The notes beneath the pieces are model-generated. The model was not told where the DNA came from. It did no database searches and was given only the letters and a program-made list of their open reading frames with translations. From the IMG/VR virus record IMGVR_UViG_3300001335_000125, positions 1 through 64,000 of that record: a stretch of 64,000 bases of DNA; one strand, written 5' to 3'. The position numbers and the translations under genes are program-made. Source of the stretch: a virus (Duplodnaviria > Caudoviricetes). Positions 2,785-43,660 of this stretch are shown here, piece after piece (the first letter of the stretch is position 1; each line of letters opens with the position of its first letter).

Positions 2785-2947
2785 ATGTTGTGATAAACCA
2801 GCAACTGTTTGTTGGTACCAAGATTCAGAAATATGGCATCTATGTGCCCAATGTTATGCCGAAATATCCCAAAATATGTACAATTGGCATAAAGACCCGA
2901 GACCCCCCTCGAATTATCGCTCAGGAGCCACGGAAACGGCCCTCTGA
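2777..2947 (+). CDS. 56-aa Cys-rich Zn-finger microprotein; not in ORF track
   Basis: MCRCCDKPA...HLCAQC; its 3' end runs through dispersed repeat copy 1. Confidence 0.5.
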   Translation: MCRCCDKPATVCWYQDSEIWHLCAQCYAEISQNMYNWHKDPRPPSNYRSGATETAL

Positions 2948-2953
2948 GCTCGA
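2903..2953 (+). repeat. dispersed GC-rich element, copy 1
   Basis: CCCCCCTCGAATTATCGCTCAGGAGCCACGGAAACGGCCCTCTGAGCTCGA matches copies at 26678, 26788 and 43618 (minus). Confidence 0.85.
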
Positions 2954-3031
2954 TGGAGATTTTCTGAATGGTATGGGTAGGGGTATAATTGCTCTCTCCG
3001 AGAAGAGTAATTTTGCCATTCAACAGAGGGC

Positions 3032-3037
3032 TTTAAA
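3032..3037 (+). promoter_or_regulatory. putative archaeal-type TATA box
   Basis: TTTAAA ending 24 nt before the ATG at 3062. Confidence 0.35.
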
Positions 3038-3061
3038 ATCAATATTTTGAAATGGGTATAA

Positions 3062-3193
3062 ATGACATCTAAAAAAGCAGAAAAGATAGTATGCAGATAT
3101 GGTATTTGCCCAGAATGTGGTAGGTATGAGTGTATACTCGTTTCGGGAAATAGATGTTTAAGATGTCTGTTAGGGGATAGAAAAGATGAATGA
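3062..3193 (+). CDS. 43-aa Zn-finger microprotein; not in ORF track
   Basis: CPECG...CLRC. Confidence 0.6.
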   Translation: MTSKKAEKIVCRYGICPECGRYECILVSGNRCLRCLLGDRKDE

Positions 3194-3389
3194 TGATTGG
3201 TTAAATAAAAGAATAGTAATAATTAAAGATATGGAAAATATACCTAAAGGTTCAATAGGAACAGTCACTGGAGATTTACCTGAACATGGATTTGCAGTGT
3301 GGTTTGATGAGGGATGTACAGAACTTAATCCACCGTGGGTTAATTTTGACTATACATCTAAAGAAGAATATTTTAAAGTGATAGAATGA
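3186..3389 (+). CDS. small SH3-like beta-barrel hypothetical protein
   Basis: RIVII...PKGSIGTVT...VWFD pattern; overlaps neighbouring genes. Confidence 0.6.
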   Translation: MNDDWLNKRIVIIKDMENIPKGSIGTVTGDLPEHGFAVWFDEGCTELNPPWVNFDYTSKEEYFKVIE

Positions 3390-3670
3390 GTGATGATTGG
3401 AGTTTAAAAGACAAACAATATAAATATGATTACCATCCAGGGCTTTTTAGTTCAGCAGTTCTTGATAAGAATGGTAATGAACTGGAACCATTTGGTGTAA
3501 ATCTATATACTGGAGACTCTATAGACATCTTAAGAAAGAAACTTATAGAAGATGTATTAAAGATTCAGGACGATTTAGCTAAAGAAGGAATATTATATCA
3601 TCTAGATACAGATGATTTTCAAAACAGGATTATCAGTTCTATTAATAAAAGATTTGGTGTTGAAGAGTGA
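3386..3670 (+). CDS. hypothetical protein
   Basis: ATGA-coupled 94-aa ORF. Confidence 0.7.
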   Translation: MSDDWSLKDKQYKYDYHPGLFSSAVLDKNGNELEPFGVNLYTGDSIDILRKKLIEDVLKIQDDLAKEGILYHLDTDDFQNRIISSINKRFGVEE

Positions 3671-3924
3671 GAACACTAAAATATATTAGACATCCAAGTA
3701 TTATGATTGGAGATGGGGATGAAGATAACGACGATACTGCGGTTGATATTGAAGATTTAAAGGATGCTGCAAGGGAATGGATAGACAAAATGAATAATGG
3801 ATACTGTTATTGTCATGAAGAGAACCATATGAATGAATGGAAAGACTATAATGAATGTGTTATGGGTAATAACATAGTTATATCTTGGATAAAGAACTTC
3901 TTTAATCTAGAGGACGAAGAATGA
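3667..3924 (+). CDS. hypothetical protein
   Basis: GTGA-coupled 85-aa ORF. Confidence 0.65.
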   Translation: MRTLKYIRHPSIMIGDGDEDNDDTAVDIEDLKDAAREWIDKMNNGYCYCHEENHMNEWKDYNECVMGNNIVISWIKNFFNLEDEE

Positions 3925-4037
3925 TCTGCCCTCAGTGTGGAAAAAACATCTATCCATATAATCAAGTAATGAATGGAGAGAGAATAAAAGTAATACAATG
4001 TGAATGTGGCTATATGAAGATATTGGAGTATGAATAA
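3921..4037 (+). CDS. 38-aa Zn-ribbon microprotein; not in ORF track
   Basis: MICPQCG...QCECG; ATGA-coupled to upstream gene. Confidence 0.6.
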   Translation: MICPQCGKNIYPYNQVMNGERIKVIQCECGYMKILEYE

Positions 4038-4479
4038 GATGAGATTTGAGATAGTAAGAGATGATAGTAGAAAGTTTCCTAAAGATGATATACATTTACC
4101 AGAAATACAAACAGAAGGTTCATGTGGATATGACATCTACACAAATGAAGAAAAAATATTAGAACCCAGTCAACAACATCTATTCTGGACGGATGTTAAG
4201 GTAAAGTTAAATAAAGATGAATTTCTAATGATGGTTCCTAGGTCATCTATTGGAGTTAAATATAATCTTATGCTAGCAAATAGTGTTGGTATAATAGATC
4301 AGTCATATTATGAGAATTCTGACAATGATGGAAATATAGGAATATGTCTTTATAATTATGGTAATGTTCCTGTGAAAGTAGAAAAGGGTATGAGAGTAGC
4401 ACAGGGAATTGTAATGAAATATGTAATAAGTACAGTTGACTTACACAAACCTAGAGTTGGTGGTTTTGGAAGTACCTAG
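4030..4479 (+). CDS. dut: trimeric dUTPase
   Basis: GYDI, PRSS, GIIDQSY, AQG and C-terminal RVGGFGST motifs. Confidence 0.95.
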   Translation: MNKMRFEIVRDDSRKFPKDDIHLPEIQTEGSCGYDIYTNEEKILEPSQQHLFWTDVKVKLNKDEFLMMVPRSSIGVKYNLMLANSVGIIDQSYYENSDNDGNIGICLYNYGNVPVKVEKGMRVAQGIVMKYVISTVDLHKPRVGGFGST

Positions 4480-4630
4480 GAAGGATTTATATATGGAAAA
4501 TGAAATAGATGATGTTCCATTATTTTATATAGATGGAACTAATATAATAATATTATTGTTAATAGGTTTAATAACCTTTGCTATGATTTTTGGATGGATA
4601 TTAACCGGATGGTAAAATAGATAATGAAAG

Positions 4631-4972
4631 ATGAAAAATAAAGAGTATATAAATTACATAATGGATGTTGTAGAAAAGAAATCCATATCTAGTCTTAATA
4701 TGTTTGAACATGCTGGAATACGATATATGACTAATGGAAAAATGATATATAAACTAAAATTACCAAAATATACTATTAATATTGGTGCATTTGGAGATTG
4801 GAGTGTTCATAATGATTTATTTAAAGATGAAGAGTATTTTTATCACATCTTAAAACCATCTTTTACCCAAAAGAGAAAAATGAAGAAGATATGGAAGAAT
4901 GTAGATACTTATATGTTAAGTAAACGGAATGAGAAAGACATGAGAATTAAATCAAGAATAATGGAGATATAG
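4631..4972 (+). CDS. hypothetical protein
   Basis: 113-aa ORF in operon orientation. Confidence 0.65.
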   Translation: MKNKEYINYIMDVVEKKSISSLNMFEHAGIRYMTNGKMIYKLKLPKYTINIGAFGDWSVHNDLFKDEEYFYHILKPSFTQKRKMKKIWKNVDTYMLSKRNEKDMRIKSRIMEI

Positions 4973-4973
4973 A

Positions 4974-5900: not shown

Positions 5901-6270
5901 ATATCAGTGCCAGTATTGTGAATACAAGTGTAAAGATATGAACATCTTAAAACATCACGAAGTCACAATACATGGATATCATAGGGATGCTCCGTTCAGA
6001 AAGAAAGTCTACTACCAGAAAAAGTTATCACCCCCAAAAGATATGAGAGAAGTTCCTGGAACAATGAAATCTAAGGATGGTTTTGATGTTCCTATCATCT
6101 ATAAATGGAATCAAACTGCAGAGATGTATGATATCTATACAGATATTGGTGGTAAAAGATTGAAAGCAATCTATAGTGATGATATAGCTATGTATAAGGT
6201 TCCTGATTGGAGTGGGGCTAAAGCGGAGATGATTAAGTATGAAGAGAACCTTCGAGAATCCGATGAATAG
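5872..6270 (+). CDS. C2H2 zinc-finger protein
   Basis: C-x2-C-x12-H-x4-H (CQYC...HEVTIH). Confidence 0.7.
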   Translation: MVIRKKKRSKYQCQYCEYKCKDMNILKHHEVTIHGYHRDAPFRKKVYYQKKLSPPKDMREVPGTMKSKDGFDVPIIYKWNQTAEMYDIYTDIGGKRLKAIYSDDIAMYKVPDWSGAKAEMIKYEENLRESDE

Positions 6271-6772: not shown

Positions 6773-6780
6773 AGGATATT

Positions 6781-6969
6781 ATGTTAGATGAATATAAAAG
6801 ATATCTATTAAGAGCATTATTTGAAATAGATTATGTATTGGAAGATATGGAATTTGATAATCTAAAAGGAAGAGAGTATCATAAATTAAAAGAAATTAAG
6901 AAAGAGATATTAAAATTAGATGATACTTTATCTAAGTCCTATAAAATTGAATGTGAGAAGTGGAAATAG
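6781..6969 (+). CDS. hypothetical protein
   Basis: 62-aa ORF with GAGG upstream. Confidence 0.6.
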   Translation: MLDEYKRYLLRALFEIDYVLEDMEFDNLKGREYHKLKEIKKEILKLDDTLSKSYKIECEKWK

Positions 6970-6971
6970 AT

Positions 6972-11772: not shown

Positions 11773-14700
11773 ATGTATTTACCTGTTTCATATGACCAAG
11801 AATTTGACGATTTATTTATGTATCTTAAAGGAAAATATCCCAAAAAATTATTTGACTTAGATGGGATCGGTGATCAACTAGATTTAAGTAAATTTAGTAA
11901 AGAGTTCTTTTCATCAAAAACAACTGCAGATATAAGTGTAGATGATAATGCAAATGTTGACGATATAAGTGTCATTGCATATGTAAAGGAATTACCAAAG
12001 CCATTCTTTAGGATAAATAGTTACTATATGTTATGGAAAGAATTAAGAAGATTATATGGAAAGGGAATTGCTAATGATATTGTAGATATGCAATTAAGTG
12101 GAGACATATATATAAATGATTTTCATGGATTAGGTTCCGGAATTTCTTATTGTTTCAATTATTCTACATATGATATTATGATGGAAGGTCTTCCTATGAT
12201 AAACAAGATAACATCCACTGCACCAAATCATTTGTACTCTTTCAAATCTCAGATAGAACAATTCACTATTATAGCAGCTAATAGCACTCTAGGAGCAACA
12301 GGATTAGCTGATTTGTTAATAATTATGTCATATTATGTAAAGAAAATATTAGATACAAAAGAGGATGCTCATTTTAAATTTAAGACTGATGAAGATGCAT
12401 GGACATATATAAAGGAGAACCTCGTATCTCTGATATATACTCTTAATCAACCAACAAGAGGTAATCAATGCTTAAGTGATGATACAAAAATATTAACTGA
12501 AAATGGGTGGAAGTCATACAACGAAATAATGCTCGGAGATAATATATATACAATGAATCTAAATAACAATAGATTAGAGTCTAAGAAAGTATTAAATATG
12601 TTCATTAAAGATTATGAAGGAGAAATGTATAATCTTAAAAATAGAATACAAGATCAACTGATCTCTCCTGAGCATAAGGTTGTTAGAAAAGTGTTTAATA
12701 CTAAAGATAACTATGTACTAGAACCAATAGAAGATGTATATAAACTAAAATCTCCACAAATAATTCCTATAGGATGTGACAACGATGAACCAGATTATGA
12801 TATAACTGATAATGAATTAAGATTAGTTTCATGGATTGTATCAGAAGGATCTGTAAGTAAAGATTATAGACTTACAATAAGTCAATCAAAAATAGAGAAT
12901 CCTAATTACTACTATGAAATTAAAGAATTATTAAACACTTTAAATTATACTTATTCAGAGTTAGTTGTGAAGACTGGACTAGGAAATGATACTAATATAT
13001 TTAGATTAATAAAGTCTGATTCACTAAAAATAATTAAGGAATTATTTGACAATAAAGGGATTAAATTTATTCCTGATTGGATAGGAAAACTATCACAAAG
13101 ACAAGCAAGAATATTTTTAGATACATATTTACAAGCAGATGGAAATATATCATCAAATACCATTGTTACCACAGTTCCTGAAGTTTTAGATAATCTTGAA
13201 ATATTGTGTGTAAAGGCAGGATATGGGTTTTCATCAAAACCAAAAAATATTGAACATAACAAACTATCTAAAAAACCACAATATCAGATAAGAATATTAA
13301 AACATAGGGATACGTATATTCAGAAGATAGAAAAAGTAAATTATAATGGTAAGATATGGTGTCCAACAACAGTTAATGGAACTGTTATAGCTAAGAGAAA
13401 TGGAAAGGTGTTTATTACTGGAAATAGTTGTTTTACTAATGTATCTATATATGATAATGCATTCTTAGATCATCTTATACCTGACTATCTTTTCCCGGAT
13501 GGTAGTACCCCAGATAAAGATATCATTAAAAAATTACAAGAACTATTGTTAGTAGTTCTCAATGAAGAGTTAAAAAGAACACCAATAACTTTTCCTATCG
13601 TAACTGCTTGTTTCTCGATAGATAAGGAAAATAATATACAAGACGAGGAGTTTGCTAGATTTATAGCAAAATATAATAAAGAGTATGGGTTTATTAATAT
13701 ATATTGTGGAACGTCTAGTACTTTATCATCTTGTTGTTTTCATCCAGATACTCCAATACTTGCAAAATCATCAAATGGGGTTAAATGGATGTCCTTTAAA
13801 GATTATCATGCCCTAAATTGGGAAAAAGATAAGAAGAATACAACTATATTTCATAACGGAAGTTGGTGTAAAGGCAACTCATTAAAATTACCGTATGGTA
13901 GAAAGTTATATAATATACAGACTTCCAATAATAAAGAAATATTAGTGACAGATGATCATATTCATCCAACAATAGAAGGAGATAAGCCTACTACAGAACT
14001 TACAGAGAATGATTATTTGTTATTTAATAGCCTACCACTAAATACATTTCCAGAAAAGGACATGAAATTAACTTATGAACAAGGATATCTTATAGGACTC
14101 TATTTAGGAGATGGTTCAAAATATAAGAATGTAAAATATGAGTCTTATACAAATACGCTCTCAATGGGATTAAATGACTATGATATTATTCCTATAGTGA
14201 GAAAAGCACTAGATGATTGGGGAATAACAACACAGATTCGTGCTAATGAAGTCGATTATAATGTTCTTTCTATACAAGTATGCTCTAAAGTTTTGTTTGA
14301 TATAATAAATGAATGGGTATACGGAAACTATGCTCATACTAAAGAGCTTAACATGCAATGTATAATTCAATCACTAAAATTTAGAGAGGGAATATTAGAT
14401 GGATGGTATAAATCGGATGGGGGAAACTCCAATAGGATATATACAACTTCAAAGAAACTATCAGAATGTGGAGAACTATTAATAACATCAATAGGAAAAC
14501 AATCCATAATTAATATAGAGGATAGAACCAATGAAAAAATTGTTATAAGAGGAGAAGTATATAACAGAAACTATCCAAGTATATGTGTAAGGTGGTATGA
14601 TTCTAAGAATAAACGAAGTATGTCAGGAGTATATAAAGTTAAAAACAACTCGATATACTATAAAATTAAGTCAATAAAGAAACTAGATGAAATTCAAGAT

Positions 14701-15672
14701 GAGGTGTATTGTTTTGAAATGAAAAATGAAGAGGAACCATACTTTACATTACCTAACGGAATAATTACTCATAACTGTAGGTTGAGATCTGATACAAATA
14801 ATGAGTATTTCAACTCATTTGGTTCGGGTTCATCTAAGATAGGGTCCCTTGGAGTTGTTACTATTAATCTACCACGACTAGCAATTAAATATAAATATGA
14901 TGAAGAGAAATTCTTTTCTAAATTAAGAGATATGGTTAAGGTATGTTCTCAAGTTAACAATGTTAAAAGAAAATTAGTTCAGAAGAGAATAGATAATGGA
15001 AATCATCCATTATACTCTTTAGGATTCATTAGTCTTGGTACTCAGTACTCTACCGTTGGATTGAATGGTCTTAATGAAGCAGTTAATATATTAGGATATG
15101 ATTTACTGGATGAGAAAGGACAGTCTGTAGCAGTAAATATAATGAATACTATTAATGATGAGAATGATAAGTATCAAAAACAATACAACTCTCCTCATAA
15201 TTGTGAGCAAGTTCCTGGAGAAAGTTTGTCTGTGAAATTAGCAGATAAGGATAAATTATTAAAATACCAAGATACATATGATATATACTCAAATCAATTT
15301 ATACCTTTGACAACTAATTCAGACATGTTAGATAGAATATACCTACAGGGTAAATTTGATAAACATTTCTCTGGAGGATCTATCTGTCATATTAATGTAG
15401 AGAGTAAAGTAGATAATGAAGACTATATAGTAGAACTTATAAAATCTAGTGCAAAGATGGGAGTTATTTATTTTGCATTAAATTACAATCTACAAAGATG
15501 TGTTAATGGACATCTTACAGTTGGTACTAAAGATAAATGCTCTGTATGTAATGGAGATATAGTAGATAATTATACAAGAGTGGTCGGTTTCTTAACAAAT
15601 ACTAAGAATTGGAACAAAACTCGCAGAGAAGTAGATTATCCAAATAGAAAATGGTATAGTGAAGTGGAATAA
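11773..15672 (+). CDS. nrdD: anaerobic (class III) ribonucleotide reductase with two inteins
   Basis: spliced motifs RGNQ/SCFTN and SSC/CRL; C-terminal CVNGH...CSVC and YTRVVGFL glycyl-radical motif; predicted spliced length 633 aa. Confidence 0.95.
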   Translation: MYLPVSYDQEFDDLFMYLKGKYPKKLFDLDGIGDQLDLSKFSKEFFSSKTTADISVDDNANVDDISVIAYVKELPKPFFRINSYYMLWKELRRLYGKGIANDIVDMQLSGDIYINDFHGLGSGISYCFNYSTYDIMMEGLPMINKITSTAPNHLYSFKSQIEQFTIIAANSTLGATGLADLLIIMSYYVKKILDTKEDAHFKFKTDEDAWTYIKENLVSLIYTLNQPTRGNQCLSDDTKILTENGWKSYNEIMLGDNIYTMNLNNNRLESKKVLNMFIKDYEGEMYNLKNRIQDQLISPEHKVVRKVFNTKDNYVLEPIEDVYKLKSPQIIPIGCDNDEPDYDITDNELRLVSWIVSEGSVSKDYRLTISQSKIENPNYYYEIKELLNTLNYTYSELVVKTGLGNDTNIFRLIKSDSLKIIKELFDNKGIKFIPDWIGKLSQRQARIFLDTYLQADGNISSNTIVTTVPEVLDNLEILCVKAGYGFSSKPKNIEHNKLSKKPQYQIRILKHRDTYIQKIEKVNYNGKIWCPTTVNGTVIAKRNGKVFITGNSCFTNVSIYDNAFLDHLIPDYLFPDGSTPDKDIIKKLQELLLVVLNEELKRTPITFPIVTACFSIDKENNIQDEEFARFIAKYNKEYGFINIYCGTSSTLSSCCFHPDTPILAKSSNGVKWMSFKDYHALNWEKDKKNTTIFHNGSWCKGNSLKLPYGRKLYNIQTSNNKEILVTDDHIHPTIEGDKPTTELTENDYLLFNSLPLNTFPEKDMKLTYEQGYLIGLYLGDGSKYKNVKYESYTNTLSMGLNDYDIIPIVRKALDDWGITTQIRANEVDYNVLSIQVCSKVLFDIINEWVYGNYAHTKELNMQCIIQSLKFREGILDGWYKSDGGNSNRIYTTSKKLSECGELLITSIGKQSIINIEDRTNEKIVIRGEVYNRNYPSICVRWYDSKNKRSMSGVYKVKNNSIYYKIKSIKKLDEIQDEVYCFEMKNEEEPYFTLPNGIITHNCRLRSDTNNEYFNSFGSGSSKIGSLGVVTINLPRLAIKYKYDEEKFFSKLRDMVKVCSQVNNVKRKLVQKRIDNGNHPLYSLGFISLGTQYSTVGLNGLNEAVNILGYDLLDEKGQSVAVNIMNTINDENDKYQKQYNSPHNCEQVPGESLSVKLADKDKLLKYQDTYDIYSNQFIPLTTNSDMLDRIYLQGKFDKHFSGGSICHINVESKVDNEDYIVELIKSSAKMGVIYFALNYNLQRCVNGHLTVGTKDKCSVCNGDIVDNYTRVVGFLTNTKNWNKTRREVDYPNRKWYSEVE
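12469..13425 (+). mobile_element. intein 1 of NrdD (319 aa, LAGLIDADG-type)
   Basis: starts CLSDDTKILTENGWK, block B ISPEHKV, VSEGS and QADG motifs, ends ITGN followed by Ser. Confidence 0.92.
13735..14775 (+). mobile_element. intein 2 of NrdD (347 aa, LAGLIDADG-type)
   Basis: starts CFHPDTPIL, VTDDH, YLGDG and KSDG motifs, ends ITHN followed by Cys. Confidence 0.93.
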
Positions 15673-18055: not shown

Positions 18056-18959
18056 AAAAACAATTATAATCACTGGAGTATCAGGATTTATAGGTAGACA
18101 CCTATGTAAAAGATTACATAACGAGTATAATATTATAGGATATGATAAAGTTTCTCCACACAAAGACTTTATTAAATATATCGATAGATTCATCTTAAAA
18201 GATATTACAGATGAATTATTGCATCATCAGGATGTCTATGCAGTTATACATCTAGCAGCAAAAGCAGGAGTAAGAGAAAGTCAAACCCAATATGAGCAAT
18301 ATGTTAAGGATAATATATTAGGTACTAAAAATGTATTAGATGCATGTGTACAGTGGTGGAAACCAAAAAAGATACTATTGGCATCGTCCTCTTCAGTATA
18401 TGGAGATAGGAAAACACCAGGAAGAGAAACGGATATTCCTAATCCAAAATCTCTATATGCTGCATCAAAGTTAGCAATGGAAGATATATCTAAAGTATAT
18501 AAGAATACTGGGATGATTAAAGATGATGTATGTAATATGAGAATATTCACTGTATATGGACCACATCAGAGAGAATCATTAGCAATACATAAGTTTATAG
18601 ATGCGGCATTAAAGGATGAGGAAATTACAGTATACGGTACTGGGGAGCAGAGTAGAGACTTTACCTTCATAGAAGACCTGTGTTTTACCATAGAGCTGTT
18701 GTTGAGAAAACAACATCTACCAGATAAACTCAATGTTGGGTTTGGTAGTACAATAACAGTTAATGAGATACTGGATATCATATCATCTGAGTTAAATAAG
18801 AATCTAAAAATAAAGTATGAACCAATGAATATGTTTGATGTTATGACTACCAAATCAGATACTAGATTATTTAATAGGGTATTACCTGGACACAAGCCAG
18901 AATTTAGTATACGACAAGGTATTATAAAACAGATAGAAGAAAGGAAGAAACATCTATGA
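18045..18959 (+). CDS. NAD-dependent nucleotide-sugar epimerase/dehydratase (extended SDR)
   Basis: TGVSGFIG, HLAAKAGVR, SSSSVYG, YAASK, RDFT. Confidence 0.92.
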   Translation: MVDKKTIIITGVSGFIGRHLCKRLHNEYNIIGYDKVSPHKDFIKYIDRFILKDITDELLHHQDVYAVIHLAAKAGVRESQTQYEQYVKDNILGTKNVLDACVQWWKPKKILLASSSSVYGDRKTPGRETDIPNPKSLYAASKLAMEDISKVYKNTGMIKDDVCNMRIFTVYGPHQRESLAIHKFIDAALKDEEITVYGTGEQSRDFTFIEDLCFTIELLLRKQHLPDKLNVGFGSTITVNEILDIISSELNKNLKIKYEPMNMFDVMTTKSDTRLFNRVLPGHKPEFSIRQGIIKQIEERKKHL

Positions 18960-25802: not shown

Positions 25803-26660
25803 ATGGTTAGTATAGGAATTATAGGATATGGAATGGTAGGTAGAGCAATTCATTCTGGATTTGCCAAACAATGTGATTTTAGAATATATGATATAGATGA
25901 TACTATCTCTGAGAATACCTTTGAAGAAGTATCTATAGATAGTGACTATATCTTTGTATGTGTACCAACACCAATGAAGTCTACAGGACAATTTGACTCG
26001 TCTATCTTAGACTATACAATAGATAAGTTAAATGAATATGTAAAAGATACTGATAAGATAGTTATTATAAAGTCTACATGTCTACCAGGAACAACAAAAG
26101 GATACCAAGAAAAATATCCTAATAGCCATATAGTCTTTAGTCCAGAATTTCTTACAGTAAGAAGTGCTAGGTTAGATTTTATCAATCCATCTAGAATAAT
26201 CTTTGGACTCGATCAAAAAAATTATGAGAGAAATCAGTGGGAGATGAATGTTTTATATGAGTTATATCATCCTAGATTTCCATCTTACAATCTACACTTT
26301 ACAGATGCTACTACTGCTGAATTAGTGAAGTATGTATCTAATTGTTTCTTTGCCACTAAAGTATCATTCTTTAACGAGATGAAACAAATATCAGATGCAT
26401 TAGGAGTTAGTTATCCTAGACTATTGAAATATGTTTTAAAAGATGGTAGAATCGGTAATAGTCACTGGGAAGTTCCTGGTCATGATATGTTACATGGATT
26501 TGGGGGCCAGTGCTTTCCCAAGGATTTGAATGCATTAATACATCTAGAAAAAGAGTTAGGTATAAATCCTACTATGTTGGATGCGGTTTGGAAGAAAAAT
26601 CTAGAGGTTAGAGAAAAAAGGGACTGGGAAGAAAATAAAAGTGCTTTTACGAGTGATTAA
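25803..26660 (+). CDS. UDP-glucose/GDP-mannose dehydrogenase family (short form)
   Basis: GYGMVG, CVPTP, KST..PG, PEFL, AE..KY..N, GFGGQCFPKD. Confidence 0.9.
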   Translation: MVSIGIIGYGMVGRAIHSGFAKQCDFRIYDIDDTISENTFEEVSIDSDYIFVCVPTPMKSTGQFDSSILDYTIDKLNEYVKDTDKIVIIKSTCLPGTTKGYQEKYPNSHIVFSPEFLTVRSARLDFINPSRIIFGLDQKNYERNQWEMNVLYELYHPRFPSYNLHFTDATTAELVKYVSNCFFATKVSFFNEMKQISDALGVSYPRLLKYVLKDGRIGNSHWEVPGHDMLHGFGGQCFPKDLNALIHLEKELGINPTMLDAVWKKNLEVREKRDWEENKSAFTSD

Positions 26661-26677
26661 TGGGGGTTAGGATACCC

Positions 26678-26720
26678 CGAAATTATCGCTGAGGATCCAC
26701 GGAAACGGGTCTAGAATCGA
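26678..26720 (+). repeat. dispersed GC-rich element, copy 2
   Basis: 36/43 nt identical to the reverse complement of 43618-43660. Confidence 0.9.
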
Positions 26721-26736
26721 CGCGGAGGTATTACCA

Positions 26737-26768
26737 ATACATATATGTATCCCCTTTCATTTTAGGGG
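26737..26768. terminator. 14-bp palindrome plus GC hairpin at the convergence of the two gene blocks
   Basis: ATACATATATGTAT (perfect palindrome), then CCCCT-N8-AGGGG followed by TTTTCTTT. Confidence 0.55.
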
Positions 26769-26787
26769 TTTTCTTTATATACTAAAT

Positions 26788-26826
26788 CAAATTTTCGTCG
26801 AGGAAGGCCGGAAACGACCCTCTAAG
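26788..26826 (+). repeat. dispersed GC-rich element, copy 4 (most diverged)
   Basis: AAATTTTCGTCGAGGAAGGCCGGAAACGACCCTCT. Confidence 0.7.
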
Positions 26827-26845
26827 GCAAAAACTATTTTTAATA

Positions 26846-27187
26846 CTACCTTTTTCCACCAAAATATGCTATTGCATGCCCTTTTTCGATAAGTTCTTGG
26901 TTGATATTAATATCATCTAAAAATATCTCAACAAGGTATCTTCCATACTTTTCTTGTTTGTATGTTTTGACCCTTACTGTCTTATTTAGGACTCTTTCAC
27001 GTAGATAGTCACGGGCTAGATATCCTCTTCTTTTCTCATCTAAATCTTTTGTTCTAATTTCAGGGGTATCTATACCATACAATCTACATTTTAATTTGAT
27101 ATGTACACTACATCCAAGATCAAATAGAATATTACAAGTATCACCATCATAAATTGATAATACTTCTGCATAATATTCATATACCAT
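26846..27187 (-). CDS. thermonuclease (SNase) family nuclease
   Basis: YDGDT, RLYGIDTPE, KYGRYL, L...G.A. Confidence 0.92.
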   Translation of the reverse strand: MVYEYYAEVLSIYDGDTCNILFDLGCSVHIKLKCRLYGIDTPEIRTKDLDEKRRGYLARDYLRERVLNKTVRVKTYKQEKYGRYLVEIFLDDININQELIEKGHAIAYFGGKR

Positions 27188-36496: not shown

Positions 36497-39400
36497 TCAT
36501 CTAGATGAACTACGATATTTGTATTTCAAACTTTTAGCCAGTTCTTCTGTGTTGTTGGCTTGAACATATACAGGACCTAATACATTGTAATTCTCATTAT
36601 AATTTTCTTCATTAGCTATTTGTTGTTGACCACCACCAGTAAATAGTGCTCCCTGTTGGAACATTAAGTCTGGATAATACTCTGGAATGATATGTTTAAG
36701 AAGTTGTTCACCATATTTTCTATTTGAACCCTCTAGAGGAATAATTGCCTCTGCTCCAGCCTCACCAAACATTCCAAGAGTTGGTGATGAATATATTCCT
36801 CCTTGTGCATTTTGACGTACAGTTACAGATACTCTTATATTTCTTACTTTCTTTGCAAATGTATCTGCAGCACTAATAACTTTTTGAAATAGAAGAATTC
36901 CTCCTACCTTTGCCGAAGTTGCAAGGAACGTTCCTGAATCACTAATAGAGGTTGATACGGATGATGTATTAGAGTAAAATTCAATTCCTGCAGAATCAAC
37001 TAATCCTTTAAATGCAGAACTAGCTTCTGATAATGTTCCTGACATCATACTAACTGCATCCGTGCTTCCTTGTATAAATGATAAGATTGCATTATTAAAA
37101 TCATTAGCATCTACATAGATATTTACATTAACTACTTTACCACCTTGCCTTATATCTGCAGATGCTCCTAATGCTCCGGTACCTCCTTCTTCAGTTGTTG
37201 TAGATGTTACTGGTACCGAGATACCCATACGTGGAGTATATACAGGCTCTTCACCAATTTCTCCACCAGATATTCCAGTTAAAATACCTTCTATGTTATC
37301 TTTTAAGATTGTATAGATGTCTTTAAGAGTAGATAGCATATCATCAAATAATGTGGATTTATTAAGACCAGTCTCTCCATTATCTCCTATTCCTACTACT
37401 CCCCCTTCAGCCATCATTGCTAAGTCTGGGAAGTAGCGGGGTATTATTTGTTGTAAGATGTTCTTACCATATTTGCGGTTAGAGCCTTCTAGAGGTATGA
37501 CAGCTTCAGCACCATCCTCACCAATAATCGCTTGTTGAGGACTGGTTGTTATTCCTCCTTTTGCTTTCGGAATATAATTCTCATCTCCGTATTGAATATG
37601 ACCAAATAATCCAGGAAATATATCAGCGAATGATTGTTGTAAATTATCCCAAAATGATGGGGTACTGGATGCTTTATTATTAAAATATGTTTCTATCTCT
37701 AGTATAACCTTAGTTCTTTCTTCAGCTGGTAATTTATCAATTTCATCCCACAAGTCTTCAAGTGACTTCTTTGCATTATCAGAAGCAGTTATTGCTGCGG
37801 AAGTATCAAATGTAAATGTATGGGTGTTTGTAATCCAATCATATACGTTTCCAAGAAGTCCCGGTTTAAAAAACTTAGCTAATTGTGGATTATCTGCTGT
37901 TGGAAATCCAGCCTCTGATAAACTAGTTTCTAGCTCTGCGTTGATGTCTTCTATCGTTCCTATTGCTTCTGATGCAGATAAATCAAATCCATACTCTTGC
38001 GATAATAATGTTATTAACTCATCTAATTTACTTATTAATCCATCTTCTCCGCCCAATGACTCTGTTAGGGTTCCTATTTTAGTAGCAACCTCATCTAATC
38101 CAGTTGTATCTCGTATATCTGATAGATTAGTTCCTACACTAGATAGCACATCATCTAATGTACCTAGATTAGACATATCTGGTAATGCTAAGATGTTCTC
38201 AAGTGACATTCCTTTTTTAATATCAACACCAAATCTTGACGCTGCAGTTGTTATAAGAGTTGCTGCTATAATTTGTTGTGCTGTAAAATCTTCAACTTGA
38301 TCTTTTCCCTCTCCATACATAGTATTAAGAAAGTCAAGATTTGATGCATACATTGAAATAACACTATTAACTTCTGGAATGTTTGCTCTAAGATTTCTTA
38401 ATGCAAGATTAGTATCCCATACCTCTTCTGCTCCATATACAACCAAATCAATTATTTGTGCATCTTGTAATCCATTTTGACTCCAACTATCAATAACATT
38501 ATCTAATATTTGTAATGTTGATATTGCATCAGTATCTCCCTCTACTCCTAAATTTATTAATAATTCTGGAGTTAATTCTAATTCATCTCCTATAAGATTA
38601 CTAACTACATTCTGAATATTTAAGTCCTCTATACTGGATAAATCTGGTGGTAGAAATCCAGGAAACTCTAATGTTGGAGCATGTATATCCCATAATGAAG
38701 TAAATAAAGGAACTAAGTCAGTATATGTTGATTTTAATTCATCTTCTATATCTTCCTTTACTAATAATTCAACGTTTATTTCTAGGGGAAGTGATTCTAC
38801 ATCTGTCCATGCAGCCATTATCTTTTCTGGTAATGTTTCAAATGCTTCCATTGCTTCGACAATTGGCTCTACAATACCTTCAAATGCATCTGTATTTACT
38901 TCAAACATATATTCCTTTTCAGCAAAATCAGCTAATATATGTAATTCCGAAGAATCTAAAGATGGTATATTTAGACTTCCAAAAGCAATATCAAATGCAG
39001 TTGCAGCATCAACCCCTTCGTCTCTAAGCTCTTTATAATATTCCTGTGCCTCTTCTACTCTTTTACGTTCATTTTCTGATAAATCATCCATAACATTAAA
39101 ATATGCAATGCGTGATTTAAACAACTCTGCCTCAGCAATCTTCATCTCCTTATAACCATCGATTATTTCATCATTAACTAATCCATATTCTGCTAATGCT
39201 TGGAATAACTCATCTAATCTCTTTGGTTGTTCTTGTCTTAGTTTATATAACTTCTCCTCAGCTTCAAGAAGTTTAAGCATTTGTTCCCATAAATCCTTGG
39301 TATTTGCTTCAAACATCTCTGTCCAGTTTGCTTCTACATTTAAAAGATGTGCATGACGAGCCCTTAACTCAGCAAGCTCTTCTTGTTGACTAATTATAAG

Positions 39401-42400
39401 TTGATTGGTCTCATAAATGTCCTGTGCAACATTTAGTCTTTTCTTTTCTACACTTGATAAATCACTCATACTTGTAGTATATGTTTTAGTCTTTTCATCT
39501 AAATCAGTAACCAAGTCACTATTCTCTATTTGTAACTCCATATATCTCCTATTAAGTGATTCATAATTCTCTAATGCAATGGATGCTTCTTCAGAGGTAT
39601 CTCCATATTGTCTCTGTGCAATAAGATATTCATTCAATGCATTATTCACTTCATCTAGTGTCTTAACTTGATTTTCTCTATTTTGATTAAGTTTATACTC
39701 TGCTTCGTCCATATCAATATATGCAATAATAGATTTATCTAGGGATTCACTTGTACTCTTTAACCAATTTATAATTCCTTGTCCAGTCTCTAAGAATTTA
39801 GTTCTATTATCAGCAATATCCTTTTCTATTTCACCTAAACGTTTCATTGCACTAGAGTACTCTTCTGCTGATTCAACTCCCTTAACTTGCATCTTAACAA
39901 TATCCTCTGTAATTCTAACTCTCTGTACTTCTAAATTTGATATGTCTGTAAGTGTTTTTCTATAAGATACTAATTCCCTAGCTCGTTGTCTATCTAATGC
40001 AAGTTCCTCCCTTGATATTCCTATAAATTGTTTAAATGATTCAAATGCATTACCAACTGCTTTTGTTATTCCATCCCAGTTTTCCATAATTGCAGTTAAT
40101 GCAAACATTGCTGCTCCAACTCCTATACTAACTAAAGCAATCTTTAGTGCCTTTGCTGCAACAGTGGCAGCTTTCATTGAAATAGTAGATCCTGTTATAC
40201 TTAGTGTCATTCCTTGAATTCCCAAAGCTAGGGTGTTGGTTAATCCTGTACTGGTTTTAACAATTAAATTCCACACTTTCATTATCTTCCCAGAGATTTT
40301 CGTTGCTATACCATGTGTAACTGTTGCTAGAGTACTGGCTATTGTAGCGAGGGTGTGTTTTCTAGTTACTGTTGTTTGTCCTACTGTTGCTACAGTGCTC
40401 AGATTTTTATTAATTACATCTTTTGCTTGTACATTACTATGAATACTTAATGCTCCTGTCTCTGTTTGGATAGTAGAAACATTTGCTAGTCTTAGTGCTT
40501 GGTCAATTTCTGTATTTTTAAATCCAGCTCGTCTCATACGATTTGCAGTAACTTGGGATGCTATGTTATGAGTCATTGCTTCGTTCTCTATTTCCATTGC
40601 TGCAGCAGTACCTAAATATGTTTTAATTTCTTCCTTACGTAAGGCTTGTCCAAACATTAATTGGGCGGTCTGTATCTTAGATACTGCTATTTCTTTTATC
40701 TTAGCACCAATTAAATCTAATATTGATCTGTGTTCATTCATTGCATACATTGCTGCTACCCGGTGTGCTATAGATAATACAGTAAGTGCTCCAATAATGA
40801 AATAGATTGGACCTCTTAGTCCTTCAAATGATTCTGCAATTATAGTTAAAGGTAATGCAAATAATAAAAGACTTGAAAGGGTTCCGTGTAATGTAGTTTT
40901 AAGTGTAGTTAGTCCGATACTTGCTGCTGCACTATCATATCCTAATTTCCTCATAGCTAATCCTGTTGCTGCTAGTGCTATAGAAAATGAGGCGAATGCA
41001 GGTACTACTGCAAATATAGATGATATAAATGGATTAATAATAACTACCAGTCCTTTGAGACCATCTCCAATAAATCCAATTCCTCCGTAGAGTGATTTCA
41101 TAGATGGTACTACTTCTTGAGTAATTGTAGATGCAAACCAATGAAGAGCAGGAATAATAGCATCTCTAAGAGATAGTGCTGCTTCTTCCATTTGATTACC
41201 CATAAGTTTAAGCTGACTATTCATAGTGGATAATTGTTTCTCTGCTATGGATTCTGTTAGTCCTCCTGTAAGTTCGAGTTGATTACGTGCTCTAGCAATA
41301 GCATCAACCTCATCTATAAGAATAAGTGCTGCTGCTGCAGTACGAGCACGGAAGAATGTTGCTGCATCGGCTGCATCAAATTGTGCAGCACGTAACTTAT
41401 AAAATATATCAGTAAGACTATTTGCATAGGGATTAATATCTGATAATGACAGTCCCATCTTATCAAGAACTTCTGTAGAGTCATCAGTTGGTTTAAGTAA
41501 TTTAGTATAAATCATATTGAGACGTTGACCTGCCTGTCCTGCCTCCAATCCTCTATCATAAAGAACTCCTAAGGTTGCATTAAGTTCATTAAAGTCTTGA
41601 CCTAATTCCCCAGCAATAGAACCAACATATTTATAGGACTCCACTAACTTATCAAGTGTGGCATAAGATGATGTAATAGTTCCCATAAACGAATCTACAA
41701 GTGCTTCTGTATCTTCTGTTTGTAGACCAAATTGCTTCATTGCTTTAGTTACAGCTTGGAATGCAGTATCTAATTCAGAGTTAGTTGCTGCTGCATAATT
41801 AATAATTGGTATTAAATCTTCAAAATCTTTCTTAACAACATCTATACCAGCCGATGCTAAGTTATATAATGCTGATGCTGCAATATTTGCACTATATCTG
41901 GTTTTCTCTCCTATTTCACTAGAGAGATTCATGATAGATTTTACTGCATCATCAAAAGATGCTCCGAGATAACCAGCCACCGAAGCAGTCTCATATGCAG
42001 ATTTCTCAAAATCTATAATGGCAGATATCATACTTGAGAATGCTTGACGAACTGTCATAACTAATTGAACACCAATACTGAATGTTATGTAGTGAATTAT
42101 CTTCTGTGCCATAGATGAAAAGTCTAATAGACCCATAATACCCATCTTATGTGCATCTCTAATATTTATCATAGATTTTACTGTTCCATCTGCCATCATC
42201 TTTAGATTTTGTTCGTAGGCTATTCTTGCATCAGTTGAACCAGCAACAAATTCATTAAATGATTTCTTATAAAAACCTACCTGTTGCTCTACATTTTTAG
42301 CGGATGGTGCTCCAGAAGGAGTCTCTCCTTTAGCCCCGCCTGCGGGTTGTGTTTGTACCTTTACAGGAGTTCCTAGAGTTTCTTGCATCTTAGTCTTAAG

Positions 42401-43516
42401 TTTACCTAATTCACCAGCAAAGTGAGCTTCATCAAAGTGTAGTTTAATTGGTGGTATATTCTCTACCATCTTTTTAAGATCTGATACAGCTGGTTTCTGG
42501 GTCTCTTTTGTTGCTTTGGTTGTTTTTGGTGTTGCATCTATCTCAGTTGCTGGTTTGATATTAAGATTTTGTAAAGCTTGTTGTTGAGCACCTGCAGTGC
42601 CCTGAGCCAATTGTGTGATAGTGTCATATGTTTGTCTTGCAAATCCTAAGATGTTTTTATAGACTTTATCAGCAGTGGATTGAATTTGTAATAGAGCTTG
42701 TTGTTGTGGGGATGTAGTTTCTTTCGTTGTCTTTTCTGTAGTTTTTGATTTTTCCTTAGTTGACTTATTAGTGGTCTTTTGATCTTTATCCTTTAGAGTT
42801 TCAATTTCTTTTAATCTTTGTCTCAAATATTTAGTATCATAGTCCTTTGATAATTCTTTGGATATTCCTGGAGCCTTTCCTAAAGTAACCTCCTTAGCCA
42901 TCATTTCTTGTTTTAGCTGAACACCATCTTTTATAAGTCTATTCATTTCTTGTTGTTGTTTCTCTGTGTATTTTAGTTCTCCATCTTTTCCTTTCTTAAT
43001 TTTATTAAATAAATCCTTTTGGGCTTTTTCATTTGTATTAATATCTTTTTGTAATTCTTTTTTTGTTCTTGGACTCTCTAACCACTTTAATTTTAATTGT
43101 TTATCATTATACTCTTCATTAAGTGCACTCATCTCAGATTGACTAGATTTGATTTGAGAGAGTTGTTTTTTGGAATTTCTTTTAGATGTCTTTAGTGCTT
43201 TATCACCAGCACTAGCTAATTTAGTATCGGATATTTTAGCAAGTTGTTCCATAGATGTTGATACAGAATCAACTACTGACTGTGCTTGGGTTGCTATAGA
43301 TTTTAGAGCCTTATTTATATTTATCGATGCATCATTAATAGATTGTGTGAGGGTATTTAGAGAACCCTTGAAATCTCCACCAGCTATATCTATCTTTAAA
43401 GACTTACTTAGTGATTTTTGTATTTCACCTTTTATCTCTTCTAAATCCGATTTAAGTAAATCTTTGTGGGCTCGAAATTGAACCGAAATGCTACCGACAT
43501 TCATATCATTTGCCAT
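36497..43516 (-). CDS. tail tape measure protein (TP901-like core)
   Basis: ~2340 aa, Ala/Leu-rich helical; FE...ETASVAG, LYNLASAG, L...G...GQAG..L; ATG 43516 has GGAG upstream. Confidence 0.93.
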   Translation of the reverse strand: MANDMNVGSISVQFRAHKDLLKSDLEEIKGEIQKSLSKSLKIDIAGGDFKGSLNTLTQSINDASININKALKSIATQAQSVVDSVSTSMEQLAKISDTKLASAGDKALKTSKRNSKKQLSQIKSSQSEMSALNEEYNDKQLKLKWLESPRTKKELQKDINTNEKAQKDLFNKIKKGKDGELKYTEKQQQEMNRLIKDGVQLKQEMMAKEVTLGKAPGISKELSKDYDTKYLRQRLKEIETLKDKDQKTTNKSTKEKSKTTEKTTKETTSPQQQALLQIQSTADKVYKNILGFARQTYDTITQLAQGTAGAQQQALQNLNIKPATEIDATPKTTKATKETQKPAVSDLKKMVENIPPIKLHFDEAHFAGELGKLKTKMQETLGTPVKVQTQPAGGAKGETPSGAPSAKNVEQQVGFYKKSFNEFVAGSTDARIAYEQNLKMMADGTVKSMINIRDAHKMGIMGLLDFSSMAQKIIHYITFSIGVQLVMTVRQAFSSMISAIIDFEKSAYETASVAGYLGASFDDAVKSIMNLSSEIGEKTRYSANIAASALYNLASAGIDVVKKDFEDLIPIINYAAATNSELDTAFQAVTKAMKQFGLQTEDTEALVDSFMGTITSSYATLDKLVESYKYVGSIAGELGQDFNELNATLGVLYDRGLEAGQAGQRLNMIYTKLLKPTDDSTEVLDKMGLSLSDINPYANSLTDIFYKLRAAQFDAADAATFFRARTAAAALILIDEVDAIARARNQLELTGGLTESIAEKQLSTMNSQLKLMGNQMEEAALSLRDAIIPALHWFASTITQEVVPSMKSLYGGIGFIGDGLKGLVVIINPFISSIFAVVPAFASFSIALAATGLAMRKLGYDSAAASIGLTTLKTTLHGTLSSLLLFALPLTIIAESFEGLRGPIYFIIGALTVLSIAHRVAAMYAMNEHRSILDLIGAKIKEIAVSKIQTAQLMFGQALRKEEIKTYLGTAAAMEIENEAMTHNIASQVTANRMRRAGFKNTEIDQALRLANVSTIQTETGALSIHSNVQAKDVINKNLSTVATVGQTTVTRKHTLATIASTLATVTHGIATKISGKIMKVWNLIVKTSTGLTNTLALGIQGMTLSITGSTISMKAATVAAKALKIALVSIGVGAAMFALTAIMENWDGITKAVGNAFESFKQFIGISREELALDRQRARELVSYRKTLTDISNLEVQRVRITEDIVKMQVKGVESAEEYSSAMKRLGEIEKDIADNRTKFLETGQGIINWLKSTSESLDKSIIAYIDMDEAEYKLNQNRENQVKTLDEVNNALNEYLIAQRQYGDTSEEASIALENYESLNRRYMELQIENSDLVTDLDEKTKTYTTSMSDLSSVEKKRLNVAQDIYETNQLIISQQEELAELRARHAHLLNVEANWTEMFEANTKDLWEQMLKLLEAEEKLYKLRQEQPKRLDELFQALAEYGLVNDEIIDGYKEMKIAEAELFKSRIAYFNVMDDLSENERKRVEEAQEYYKELRDEGVDAATAFDIAFGSLNIPSLDSSELHILADFAEKEYMFEVNTDAFEGIVEPIVEAMEAFETLPEKIMAAWTDVESLPLEINVELLVKEDIEDELKSTYTDLVPLFTSLWDIHAPTLEFPGFLPPDLSSIEDLNIQNVVSNLIGDELELTPELLINLGVEGDTDAISTLQILDNVIDSWSQNGLQDAQIIDLVVYGAEEVWDTNLALRNLRANIPEVNSVISMYASNLDFLNTMYGEGKDQVEDFTAQQIIAATLITTAASRFGVDIKKGMSLENILALPDMSNLGTLDDVLSSVGTNLSDIRDTTGLDEVATKIGTLTESLGGEDGLISKLDELITLLSQEYGFDLSASEAIGTIEDINAELETSLSEAGFPTADNPQLAKFFKPGLLGNVYDWITNTHTFTFDTSAAITASDNAKKSLEDLWDEIDKLPAEERTKVILEIETYFNNKASSTPSFWDNLQQSFADIFPGLFGHIQYGDENYIPKAKGGITTSPQQAIIGEDGAEAVIPLEGSNRKYGKNILQQIIPRYFPDLAMMAEGGVVGIGDNGETGLNKSTLFDDMLSTLKDIYTILKDNIEGILTGISGGEIGEEPVYTPRMGISVPVTSTTTEEGGTGALGASADIRQGGKVVNVNIYVDANDFNNAILSFIQGSTDAVSMMSGTLSEASSAFKGLVDSAGIEFYSNTSSVSTSISDSGTFLATSAKVGGILLFQKVISAADTFAKKVRNIRVSVTVRQNAQGGIYSSPTLGMFGEAGAEAIIPLEGSNRKYGEQLLKHIIPEYYPDLMFQQGALFTGGGQQQIANEENYNENYNVLGPVYVQANNTEELAKSLKYKYRSSSR

Positions 43517-43542
43517 GGTTTGCTCCAATTTCTAATTTTGCA

Positions 43543-43548
43543 TTTAAA
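43543..43548 (-). promoter_or_regulatory. putative TATA box of the tape-measure operon
   Basis: TTTAAA ending 26 nt before ATG 43516. Confidence 0.35.
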
Positions 43549-43577
43549 GGGGTCATACGTGCGATCTGACGAGGGTA

Positions 43578-43601
43578 CCCCTTACCCCTTACCCTTACCC
43601 C
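43578..43601 (-). other. G-quadruplex-forming tract
   Basis: GGGG-TAA-GGG-TAA-GGGG-TAA-GGGG on the minus strand. Confidence 0.7.
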
Positions 43602-43617
43602 TCGGAAAGTATTACTT

Positions 43618-43660
43618 TCGATTCTAGGGTCGTTTCCGTGGATCCTCGTGCATAATTTCG
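43618..43660 (-). repeat. dispersed GC-rich element, copy 3
   Basis: CGAAATTATGCACGAGGATCCACGGAAACGACCCTAGAATCGA (minus strand). Confidence 0.9.

Follow-up and report, generated by a model that had tools for sequence, protein, structure and literature searches.

Background

Among described systems, the closest to the sequence reported here are the intergenic repeats of HF2 (Haloferacalesvirus). The class I repeats are 58 bp long, with variable positions separating their conserved blocks. A TATA box and a start site lie within them, their position is kept across the genus, and they drive expression of a reporter gene (PMC8707807). The HF2 repeats were identified as promoters by means of reporter assay and primer extension (PMC8707807). 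A second comparison is offered by the PeSLs of T4-type phages, to which a TATA-plus-inverted-repeat motif of HGTV-1 has been likened (PMC3950731). At replication origins, the ORB and mini-ORB sites of Pyrococcus have invariant TTCC and GAA cores that are 4 nt apart (PMC1904270).

The window analysed here is a stretch of 64,000 nt, positions 1 to 64,000 of the 73.9-kb virus record IMGVR_UViG_3300001335_000125 (64% complete). It contains four copies of an element, designated E, which forms one arm of a larger intergenic unit. The class I and II repeats of HF2 are similar to E in that they occur in archaeal tailed viruses, are about 55–58 bp long, lie only between genes and number a handful per genome. 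Both have a block structure and are associated with TATA-like sequences, both are kept in sequence and position among relatives, and some copies of each face "backwards", with possible counter-transcripts. There is, however, no sequence homology between them. In HF2, the TATA box and start site are inside the repeat, whereas the A/T-rich stretch of E is too degenerate for a good TATA box and the TATA-like box lies in a second, inverted arm about 95 nt downstream, which is far by the standard of known archaeal regulators. The HF2 promoters were assayed, whereas the putative promoter role of the E cassette is read from its sequence. We know of no HF2 counterpart of the composite palindromic unit, its G-rich centre, or the T run.

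PeSLs resemble the unit in being composite motifs with terminator-like and promoter-like parts, repeated at gene boundaries (PMC2839356, PMC4122927, PMC3950731), and perhaps in being linked to insertion, deletion, and replacement differences between related genomes. They differ from it in being bacterial sigma-70 early promoters with a true stem-loop that occur by the dozen, whereas E units occur in 1–5 copies and have no conserved stem. Of the PeSL-type features, the unit has a T run following E and a right arm with a TATA-like box; a conserved stem is unsupported.

Results and discussion

Copies of the element in the window

The pattern AGG-N5-CGGAAACG-N2-YCT had exactly four matches in the window (Table 1), and not one match occurred in 100 dinucleotide shuffles. 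No further copy was found in the other 9.9 kb of the record. AATTWT lay upstream of all four copies at a constant spacing of 5 nt, and the G+C content of the copies was 49–58%, versus 32% for the window. The copies at 26678 and 43618 were the best pair, identical at 36 of 43 nt including a 17-nt exact block; the remaining pairs were identical at 26–30 of 43 nt. A layout was common to the copies at 2903 and 43618, in which the element is followed by a G-rich tract, by TTTAAA about 90–100 nt on, and by an ATG 27–32 nt later; the TATA-like box of these two copies lies within a block common to other members of the family.

The first-pass annotation of this DNA had described four GC-rich copies of a conserved element, each preceded by AATT(A/T)T, a pair sharing 36/43 nt with a 17-nt exact block, and the layout of G-tract, TTTAAA and ATG in two copies, all of which agree with the present data. 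Its numbering is consistent once "copy 3" is read as the minus-strand copy and "copy 4" as the copy at 26788; copies are numbered here by position. It had also given the length as about 43 nt, which was too short: E is about 55 nt long and is one arm of a larger unit.

All four copies lie between ORFs, with copy 1 extending into the end of the preceding ORF (Table 1). A coding origin of the conservation was rejected because no reading frame is common to the copies: stop codons fall at differing places and the frames differ between copies. An ORF of 72 aa (43506-43724) and one of 86 aa (2790-3050) merely run across the non-coding units.

Architecture of the composite unit

E is the left arm of a composite unit of 130–190 nt. 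Ahead of E lies a C-rich block; behind it come a short T run, a G-rich centre, and a right arm, which is E-like but inverted and degenerate. Block coordinates, as read off the numbered sequence, are listed in Table 1. Within E, the order is an A/T-rich stretch, a GAGGAT box, 8–10 variable nt, and a CCCTCT box. Across the family, the two boxes are kept and the CGGAAACG core between them is less conserved than any other part. In 16 of 26 aligned copies, four or more consecutive T stand directly 3′ of E. The right arm often bears a TTTAAA TATA-like box in place of the GAGGAT box, 25–35 nt before the next start codon.

Table 1 Pattern matches, unit parts and adjoining features in the window
Feature	Position	Strand	Remarks
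Pattern match, copy 1	2923-2943	+	
Pattern match, copy 2	26692-26712	+	
Pattern match, copy 3	26801-26821	+	
Pattern match, copy 4	43626-43646	-	
Unit 1, C-rich left block	2894..2908	+	Equivalent GGATACCC-like block before E in most family members
E copy 1	2907..2955	+	Pattern match; model match, E-value 1e-10; overlaps 3′ end (last ~14 codons) of 56-aa zinc-ribbon ORF 2777-2947
Unit 1, G-rich centre	2970..2986	+	G-tract of the first-pass annotation; matches conserved family centre GGTA...GGGT
Unit 1, right arm	3015..3049	+	Degenerate inverted E-like block; compared with right arms of other members
Unit 1, TATA-like box	3031-3039	+	Followed by ATG of 43-aa zinc-ribbon gene at 3062
Unit 2, left block	26662..26679	+	Small, G/C hairpin-like; directly after stop of UDP-glucose dehydrogenase-like gene at 26660
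E copy 2	26676..26723	+	Pattern and model matches
Unit 2, right arm	26746..26769	+	Decayed, TATA-like box lost; compared with right arm of copy 4
E copy 3 with T run	26787..26841	+	Best family-model match, E-value 8e-13
SNase-like gene	26846-27187	-	3′ end 9 nt from E copy 3
E copy 4	43608..43662	-	56 nt past stop of 105-aa gene (43717-44034)
Unit 4, G-rich centre	43578..43601	-	Four GGGGTAA-like repeats (expanded)
Unit 4, right arm	43530..43572	-	TATA-like box 43542-43550; tape-measure ATG at 43516

In a regex scan, the G-rich centre of unit 4 was the only canonical G-quadruplex motif of the window, and the right arm of this unit was collinear with those of virus records G006, G007, and L024. 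The right arms of copies 2 and 3 are decayed, and both copies face the 3′ end of a convergent gene. The downstream consensus block was also considered as a repeated promoter, and no repetition of it was found within the window.

Distribution in related viruses

Models built from sequence only detected E in 12 of 34, then in 15 of 43, capsid-related virus records, with 1–5 copies per record. The positive records are spread across the whole capsid-protein tree, and an origin of the family restricted to one clade was therefore rejected; many of the negative records are fragments. Exact-pattern scans of viral and metagenome collections gave matches almost wholly within this virus group. The undescribed cis element proposed in the first-pass annotation thus has further copies in related viral genomes. 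Two relatives of 138–155 kb, each 87% complete, had no copy, and the cassette is therefore dispensable. A search for close relatives by means of the 591-aa neighbour protein found none.

All copies inspected in the relatives lie between ORFs. Approximately two-thirds of the copies are 16–80 nt past the stop codon of a co-oriented gene, and approximately one-third are antisense to both neighbouring genes (G012, G006 at 69.3 kb, and G008). Copy 2 and the copy at the tail-module end of G007 had about 81% nucleotide identity, with capsid proteins only 43% identical; copy 4 was 74% identical to its counterpart in G033, with adjoining 105-aa proteins 53% identical. E evolves more slowly than the genes next to it.

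The cassette is carried by a clade of archaeal tailed viruses that are uncultured, AT-rich, and rich in inteins. The archaeal assignment is made because the nearest named capsids are those of haloarchaeal tailed viruses (about 25% identity), inteins are many, and TATA-like boxes lie about 27 nt before start codons. When genome contigs were scanned for the capsid, only two metagenome bins were found, labelled Saccharibacteria and Thermoplasmatales; one of them had a weak element match (E-value 0.15), the matched sequence being the same as that of virus record G015; the second bin had none.

Position of the units among relatives

The unit upstream of the tape-measure gene has positional orthologues in the window, G033, G006, and G007. 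An alignment of the spacer that separates the 105-aa gene from the tape-measure gene showed collinearity among the window, G006, and G007, and with G033 up to the end of its contig. The capsid proteins of these viruses are only 43–57% identical; collinearity at this level of divergence points to long vertical inheritance under constraint. A copy at the end of the tail module is common to the window, G001, G007, and L127; it is sense to the tail genes in the three relatives and antisense in the window. Genes beside this copy vary, with an SNase gene present or absent and the right-hand neighbours differing, and no pair of genomes was close enough for break points to be located.

At three orthologous sites, some genomes have the unit and others lack it. 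Between the 105-aa and tape-measure genes, the window has 200 nt and G001 has 60 nt; L024 has no E in the spacer before its tape-measure gene; and approximately 155 nt at 1.5 kb of G012 are absent from L074. The flanks at these sites are about 70% identical, which is too diverged for junctions or duplications to be defined.

RNA folding

The first-pass annotation had proposed that the core folds as an AGG/YCT stem with an internal loop and CG-GAAA-CG. This fold was not supported. With the proposed partners, 83.1% of the cells were paired, versus 81.0% with shuffled partners, and covariation was 0.216 versus 0.188; 52–53 of 500 shuffles scored as high as the proposed fold. RNAalifold gave no consensus pairs, whether run on 7 sequences or on 26. 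The four cores of the window had fold z-scores of −2.0, +0.5, +1.3, and −0.9, and whole units scored from −0.5 to +0.5. Complementarity of left and right arms was no better within units than between units (permutation p = 0.89). A closing helix formed by the two flanks, C-rich and G-rich, was rejected, as there was no covariation and good pairing was present only in window copies 1 and 4. The Rfam scan suggested by the annotation gave no match at gathering score in the window, nor at an E-value ≤1 in 8 loci. The conservation of E resides in sequence blocks and not in pairing.

These results make it rather improbable that E works as an RNA, either as a small ncRNA or as a cis element in a polycistronic mRNA (a processing site, a 3′-end stabiliser, or an intrinsic terminator hairpin), for which the RNase III sites between the genes of T7 serve as a comparison. 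Such a role would be consistent with the position of most copies, shortly past the stop codon of an upstream gene in the same orientation, and with the sense-strand T run after E. G-U cells exceeded A-C cells by 19 to 7 in the proposed helices, a weak hint of sense-strand pairing; the inner 2-bp pair had some two-sided changes (6 cells); and some members fold well (z −2.8 in G001, and −3 to −4 in units with two intact arms). The copies antisense to their neighbours argue against an RNA role, as do the fold statistics given above.

Alternative explanations

The unit may instead be mobile, as a non-autonomous element of the MITE type: imperfectly palindromic over about 130–190 bp, with long inverted arms, it would spread from one intergenic site to another, and any regulatory effect would be a by-product. 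Bacterial small palindromic intergenic repeats or MITEs, such as Correia elements, ERIC/IRU, and REP/BIME, resemble the unit in size and imperfect palindromy, in lying between genes in either orientation, in carrying promoter- or terminator-like pieces, and in presence/absence polymorphism. Mobility would account for the three filled or empty sites and for units in both orientations relative to neighbouring genes, and it is consistent with the inverted arms, E and E′, that are clear in G017, L025, and L128, with several copies at contig ends, and with likeness within genomes (the same core in all four window copies, an unusual core shared in G012). The arms are degenerate outside these three records, and conservation extends beyond the arms. 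Unlike the bacterial elements, the unit has few, divergent copies in a viral carrier, with no sharp termini found and no clear terminal inverted repeat boundary or target-site duplication definable in the diverged flanks. No partner transposase was seen. Identity among the copies of one genome is only 60–84%, unlike that of recently active MITEs, and near-identical copies were not found in the window, where copies agree at 26–36 of 43 nt. The collinear tape-measure unit and the slower evolution of E relative to neighbouring genes also argue against this explanation, and we consider it doubtful.

An ORB-like replication-origin site, or a recombination or packaging site, is very unlikely. The first-pass annotation had noted a resemblance to the ORB core, and copies 2 and 4 do carry a TCCACGGAAAC stretch that is mini-ORB-like (TCC...GAAAC-like), with G-rich tracts nearby; in some units, inverted arms flank a centre that contains A/T and a G-rich tract, loosely recalling an ORB-DUE-ORB arrangement, and copies 2/3 are in inverted orientation to copy 4, with the distal tail genes between them. 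The likeness, however, is limited to those two copies, and the TTCC/GAA core and its spacing are not matched: the window copies have ATCC, AGCC, or AGGC at a spacing of 3 nt, one nt short, and most family members lack the motif. Whereas ORB sites are clustered by the initiator gene, each genome has 2–5 scattered copies, some of which separate tightly linked genes for structural proteins; those of the window stand at 2.9, 26.7, and 43.6 kb among structural or metabolic genes. The window of this incomplete record showed no orc1/cdc6 gene, and cumulative GC skew turns where two gene blocks converge, as from gene orientation alone. Even harder to credit are the readings of E as a lone mimic of a CRISPR repeat, serving as an RNA decoy of the anti-CRISPR type, or as a fragment of an att site or tRNA. 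A length of 37–45 nt is repeat-like, and the 3′ end of copy 4 resembles what we take to be the 8-nt handle end of some archaeal repeats. That end is present in only 2–3 copies, however; three collection-wide pattern scans (viral and metagenome) found no CRISPR arrays, with a single match per contig, and no tRNA gene or tRNA-like match was present at any copy. In a record classed as a provirus in IMG/VR, viral genes run on past the copy.

A candidate transcription-control cassette

We tentatively favour, at a little below an even chance, the reading of E as the best-conserved module of a lineage-specific, intergenic transcription-control cassette, which would bind a protein at the DNA level. 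We infer protein binding, promoter activity, and terminator activity as follows. The right arm would provide the promoter of the gene that follows, such as the tape-measure gene. E with its T run, at the end of the preceding transcription unit, would be the site for a sequence-specific protein, viral or host, and the bound protein may act as an operator-binding factor, at an upstream activating site, or as a roadblock or terminator. Of the options in the first-pass annotation, the late-promoter enhancer is in keeping with the arrangement seen at the 2903 and 43618 copies. At copies 2 and 3, the right arms are decayed and the neighbouring gene is convergent; therefore, no single promoter or terminator role suits every copy. 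Over evolutionary time, copies of the cassette would arise, decay, flip, and vanish, and through such gain and loss it would behave like the promoter-terminator cassettes of T4-type phages.

A further-reaching proposal, which we regard as unlikely, is that the unit is a mobile regulatory cassette of archaeal viruses: an imperfect palindrome with a TATA promoter arm and a protein-site arm that would move, flip, and be homogenised from one intergenic site to another, and so rewire late-gene transcription. Its 8–10-nt core would co-evolve with the carrier genome and serve as a specificity code for a virus-encoded factor.

Conclusions

As it stands, the E cassette adds a new lineage to an ordinary kind of feature, the virus-specific intergenic repeat. 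Next to nothing is known about the organisation of transcription in uncultured archaeal tailed viruses, and a recognisable, conserved cassette provides a handle for studies of their promoters, terminators, and regulators, and can be used as a lineage marker. If the variable core is a specificity determinant, or if the cassette is mobile, the idea of a "mobile regulatory cassette" from T4-type phages would extend to archaeal viruses.

A conserved intergenic element in four copies

The pattern AGG-N5-CGGAAACG-N2-YCT, described in the first-pass annotation, occurred exactly four times, with 0 occurrences expected by chance, and was found nowhere else in the whole record. The AATTWT at a fixed distance ahead of the copies, the best-pair identity of 36/43 with a 17-nt exact block, and the layout common to the copies at 2903 and 43618 (element, G-tract, TTTAAA, ATG) were likewise borne out. 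A three-frame comparison of the window copies showed no common reading frame, so that coding does not account for the conservation.

A degenerate pattern scan of IMG/VR returned one true homologue, on the 144.5-kb contig G001, the capsid protein of which is 57% identical to that of the window. Capsid alignment search yielded 73 related viral loci. With 8 copies as input, a sequence-only covariance model detected the element (E) in 12 of 34 records, and a model from 26 copies detected it in 15 of 43, with 1–5 copies each (4 in the window genome and in the related records G012 and G017, 5 in G004 and G006). The 26-copy model found no copy in two 87%-complete records of 138–155 kb. Element-positive records were spread across the entire capsid tree, and stricter pattern scans of viral and metagenome collections matched almost only this virus group, always with one match per contig. 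The E family is real and conserved. The genes on either side are less well conserved than E: copy 2 and the copy in the related record G007, for instance, share approximately 81% of nucleotides, compared with 43% identity between the capsid proteins.

Anatomy of the element and the composite unit

As read from the 26-sequence alignment (A4), E spans approximately 55 nt: an A/T-rich stretch that is degenerate, a GAGGAT(T/C)(G/C) box that is nearly invariant, 8–10 variable nt, and a CCCTCT-type box; a short T run follows a few bases past E in 16 of the 26 copies. The CGGAAACG core of the first-pass pattern proved to be the variable part of E in this alignment. It is present in the window, G001, G007, and locus L127 of a capsid-related virus, and other genomes carry different cores at that place, some of them A/T-rich.

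A longer collinear unit, of which E is just the left arm, is ordered as C-rich block, E, T run, G-rich centre, and right arm, the last being an inverted E-like copy more degenerate than E. Many right arms have a TTTAAA-type box in place of the GAGGAT box; the TTTAAA noted at copies 1 and 4 is this right-arm box and lies 27–32 nt ahead of the next ATG. The G-tracts of the first-pass annotation correspond to the G-rich centre. At copy 4, the four-repeat tract lies on the coding strand, approximately 60 nt before the tape-measure ATG, and is a locally expanded form of a conserved block, since relatives hold a shorter GGTA...GGGT tract at this position. The unit is most clearly palindromic in the inverted pairs of G017 (see table).

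Gene organization and position of the copies

The IMG/VR record is 73.9 kb in length and estimated to be 64% complete; the window is its first 64 kb and is AT-rich (G+C ~32%). Genes lie on the plus strand up to 26.66 kb and on the minus strand from 26.85 kb onward, the latter forming a tailed-virus structural module. The closest named capsid proteins are those of haloarchaeal tailed viruses, with approximately 25% identity, and the window therefore probably derives from an uncultured archaeal tailed virus. The intein load across the window and locus L014 is unusually high. Inteins interrupt the genes for NrdD (intein plus LAGLIDADG domains), an 821-aa head-protease-like protein (Hint domain), and the portal (LAGLIDADG insert), as well as that for a 1360-aa protein encoded in the final 10 kb of the record (three Hint/intein regions).

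Coordinates of the features discussed
Feature	Record	Position	Strand	Remark
Element copy 1	window	2903	+	
Element copy 2	window	26678	+	
Element copy 3	window	26788	+	
Element copy 4	window	43618	-	
Zinc-ribbon ORF, 56 aa	window	2777-2947	+	flanks copy 1
Zinc-ribbon ORF, 43 aa	window	3062-3193	+	flanks copy 1
Intein-rich regions	window	11773-15672, 61162-63627		
Intein-rich regions	L014	1636-4020, 4323-8405		
SNase-like (staphylococcal-nuclease-like) gene	window	26846-27187	-	closes tail module, adjoins copy 3
Tape-measure protein, 2343 aa	window	36497-43528	-	(-) block
72-aa ORF	window	43506-43724		probably no real gene
Four GGGGTAA-like repeats	window	43578-43601	-	only canonical G-quadruplex motif in the 64-kb window
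HK97-like capsid protein	window	58513-59487	-	(-) block
Tail-tip proteins	window		-	within structural module
Head-to-head inverted element pairs, ~26 nt apart	G017	1579-1687, 18362-18489		two separate loci (L139, L101)

In the window, G006, and G007, the spacer between a 105-aa gene and the tape-measure gene contains a collinear unit, which G033 shares up to the end of its contig; capsid identities of these three relatives to the window are only 43–57%. In G001 a 60-nt A/T-rich spacer takes the place of the unit, and at this spacer in locus L024 the G-rich and promoter-like part is kept and E is absent. The tape-measure ORF as listed starts with TTG at 43528; the ATG at 43516, with a GGAG-like site ahead, is more likely the true start. 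The 72-aa ORF, which is probably no real gene, only spans the non-coding unit.

A second conserved site lies where the tail module ends, and is occupied in the window, G001, G007, and L127. Both window copies there are antisense to the tail genes and sense to the opposite gene block, that of sugar metabolism. Homologues of the SNase-like gene adjoin the element in G007 and L127; G001 has none at the corresponding place. G012 and locus L074 constitute a third filled/empty site pair. Approximately two-thirds of the inspected copies lie 16–80 nt past the stop codon of a co-oriented gene; about one-third are antisense to both neighbours, typically 18–37 nt from a start codon.

The 56-aa zinc-ribbon ORF overlaps copy 1 by approximately 14 codons, and copies in G006 and G008 are also flanked by small Cys-rich ORFs. 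Such ORFs could encode candidate binding proteins, or their proximity could be a coincidence in genomes rich in them.

Possible exchange of the core between copies

Region 69.27–69.33 kb of G006 and region 103.27–103.32 kb of G004 (loci L099 and L108) have flanks 98–100% identical, whereas in the middle of E ~20 nt are unrelated in sequence, the G004 version being A/T-rich and TATA-like. Copies within one genome tend to share core features: all four window copies have the same core, and the G012 copies have an unusual core in common. The core difference and the within-genome sharing both point to gene conversion among the copies or to co-evolution with a genome-specific factor.

Recognition as RNA or DNA

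All structural tests for an RNA fold were negative or weak. RNAalifold gave no pairs on 7 or on 26 sequences, and Rfam gave nothing even at an E-value ≤ 1. In the hairpin proposed earlier, 83.1% of cells were paired versus 81.0% with shuffled partners, and the pairs hardly vary, so that this fold found no support. Core-fold z-scores of the four window copies were -2.0, +0.5, +1.3, and -0.9, and those of whole units in the window ranged from -0.5 to +0.5; strongly negative values (-3 to -4) were obtained only in relatives with both inverted arms intact. Complementarity of the C-rich left block to the G-rich centre was no better within than between units (p = 0.89). An excess of G-U over A-C cells (19 to 7) in the proposed helices hints weakly at the sense strand and may equally reflect stronger conservation of the 5′ box. 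We consider it improbable that E acts as RNA. Conserved sequence blocks, occurrence in both orientations, and the lack of a conserved fold favour recognition of E as double-stranded DNA.

Possible role of the unit

The closest tested precedent is the intergenic repeats of halovirus HF2. Its class I repeats, 58 bp long, are built of conserved blocks separated by variable positions and include the TATA box and the start site; their location is preserved across the genus, and reporter assays have shown them to be promoters (PMC8707807). In HGTV-1, a TATA-plus-inverted-repeat motif has been compared with PeSL cassettes (PMC3950731), which are promoter/terminator cassettes of T4-type phages (PMC2839356). 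Drawing on these precedents, we tentatively regard the unit as a lineage-specific transcription-control cassette, a reading we hold at slightly less than even chance. The right arm would supply a promoter where the downstream gene needs one, E and the T run would mark where the preceding unit ends, and E would most likely bind a sequence-specific protein. E has stayed intact in window copies 2 and 3 despite the decay of their promoter arm, an indication that it serves a function by itself.

A MITE-like nature of the unit is unlikely, and would be compatible with such a cassette. The resemblance to ORB noted earlier does not extend to the defining ORB motif (PMC1904270), and that reading is very improbable; no support was found for a CRISPR-mimic or an att site. 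The E family itself is undescribed; virus-specific intergenic regulatory repeats are known, as a kind, from tailed viruses of both archaea and bacteria.
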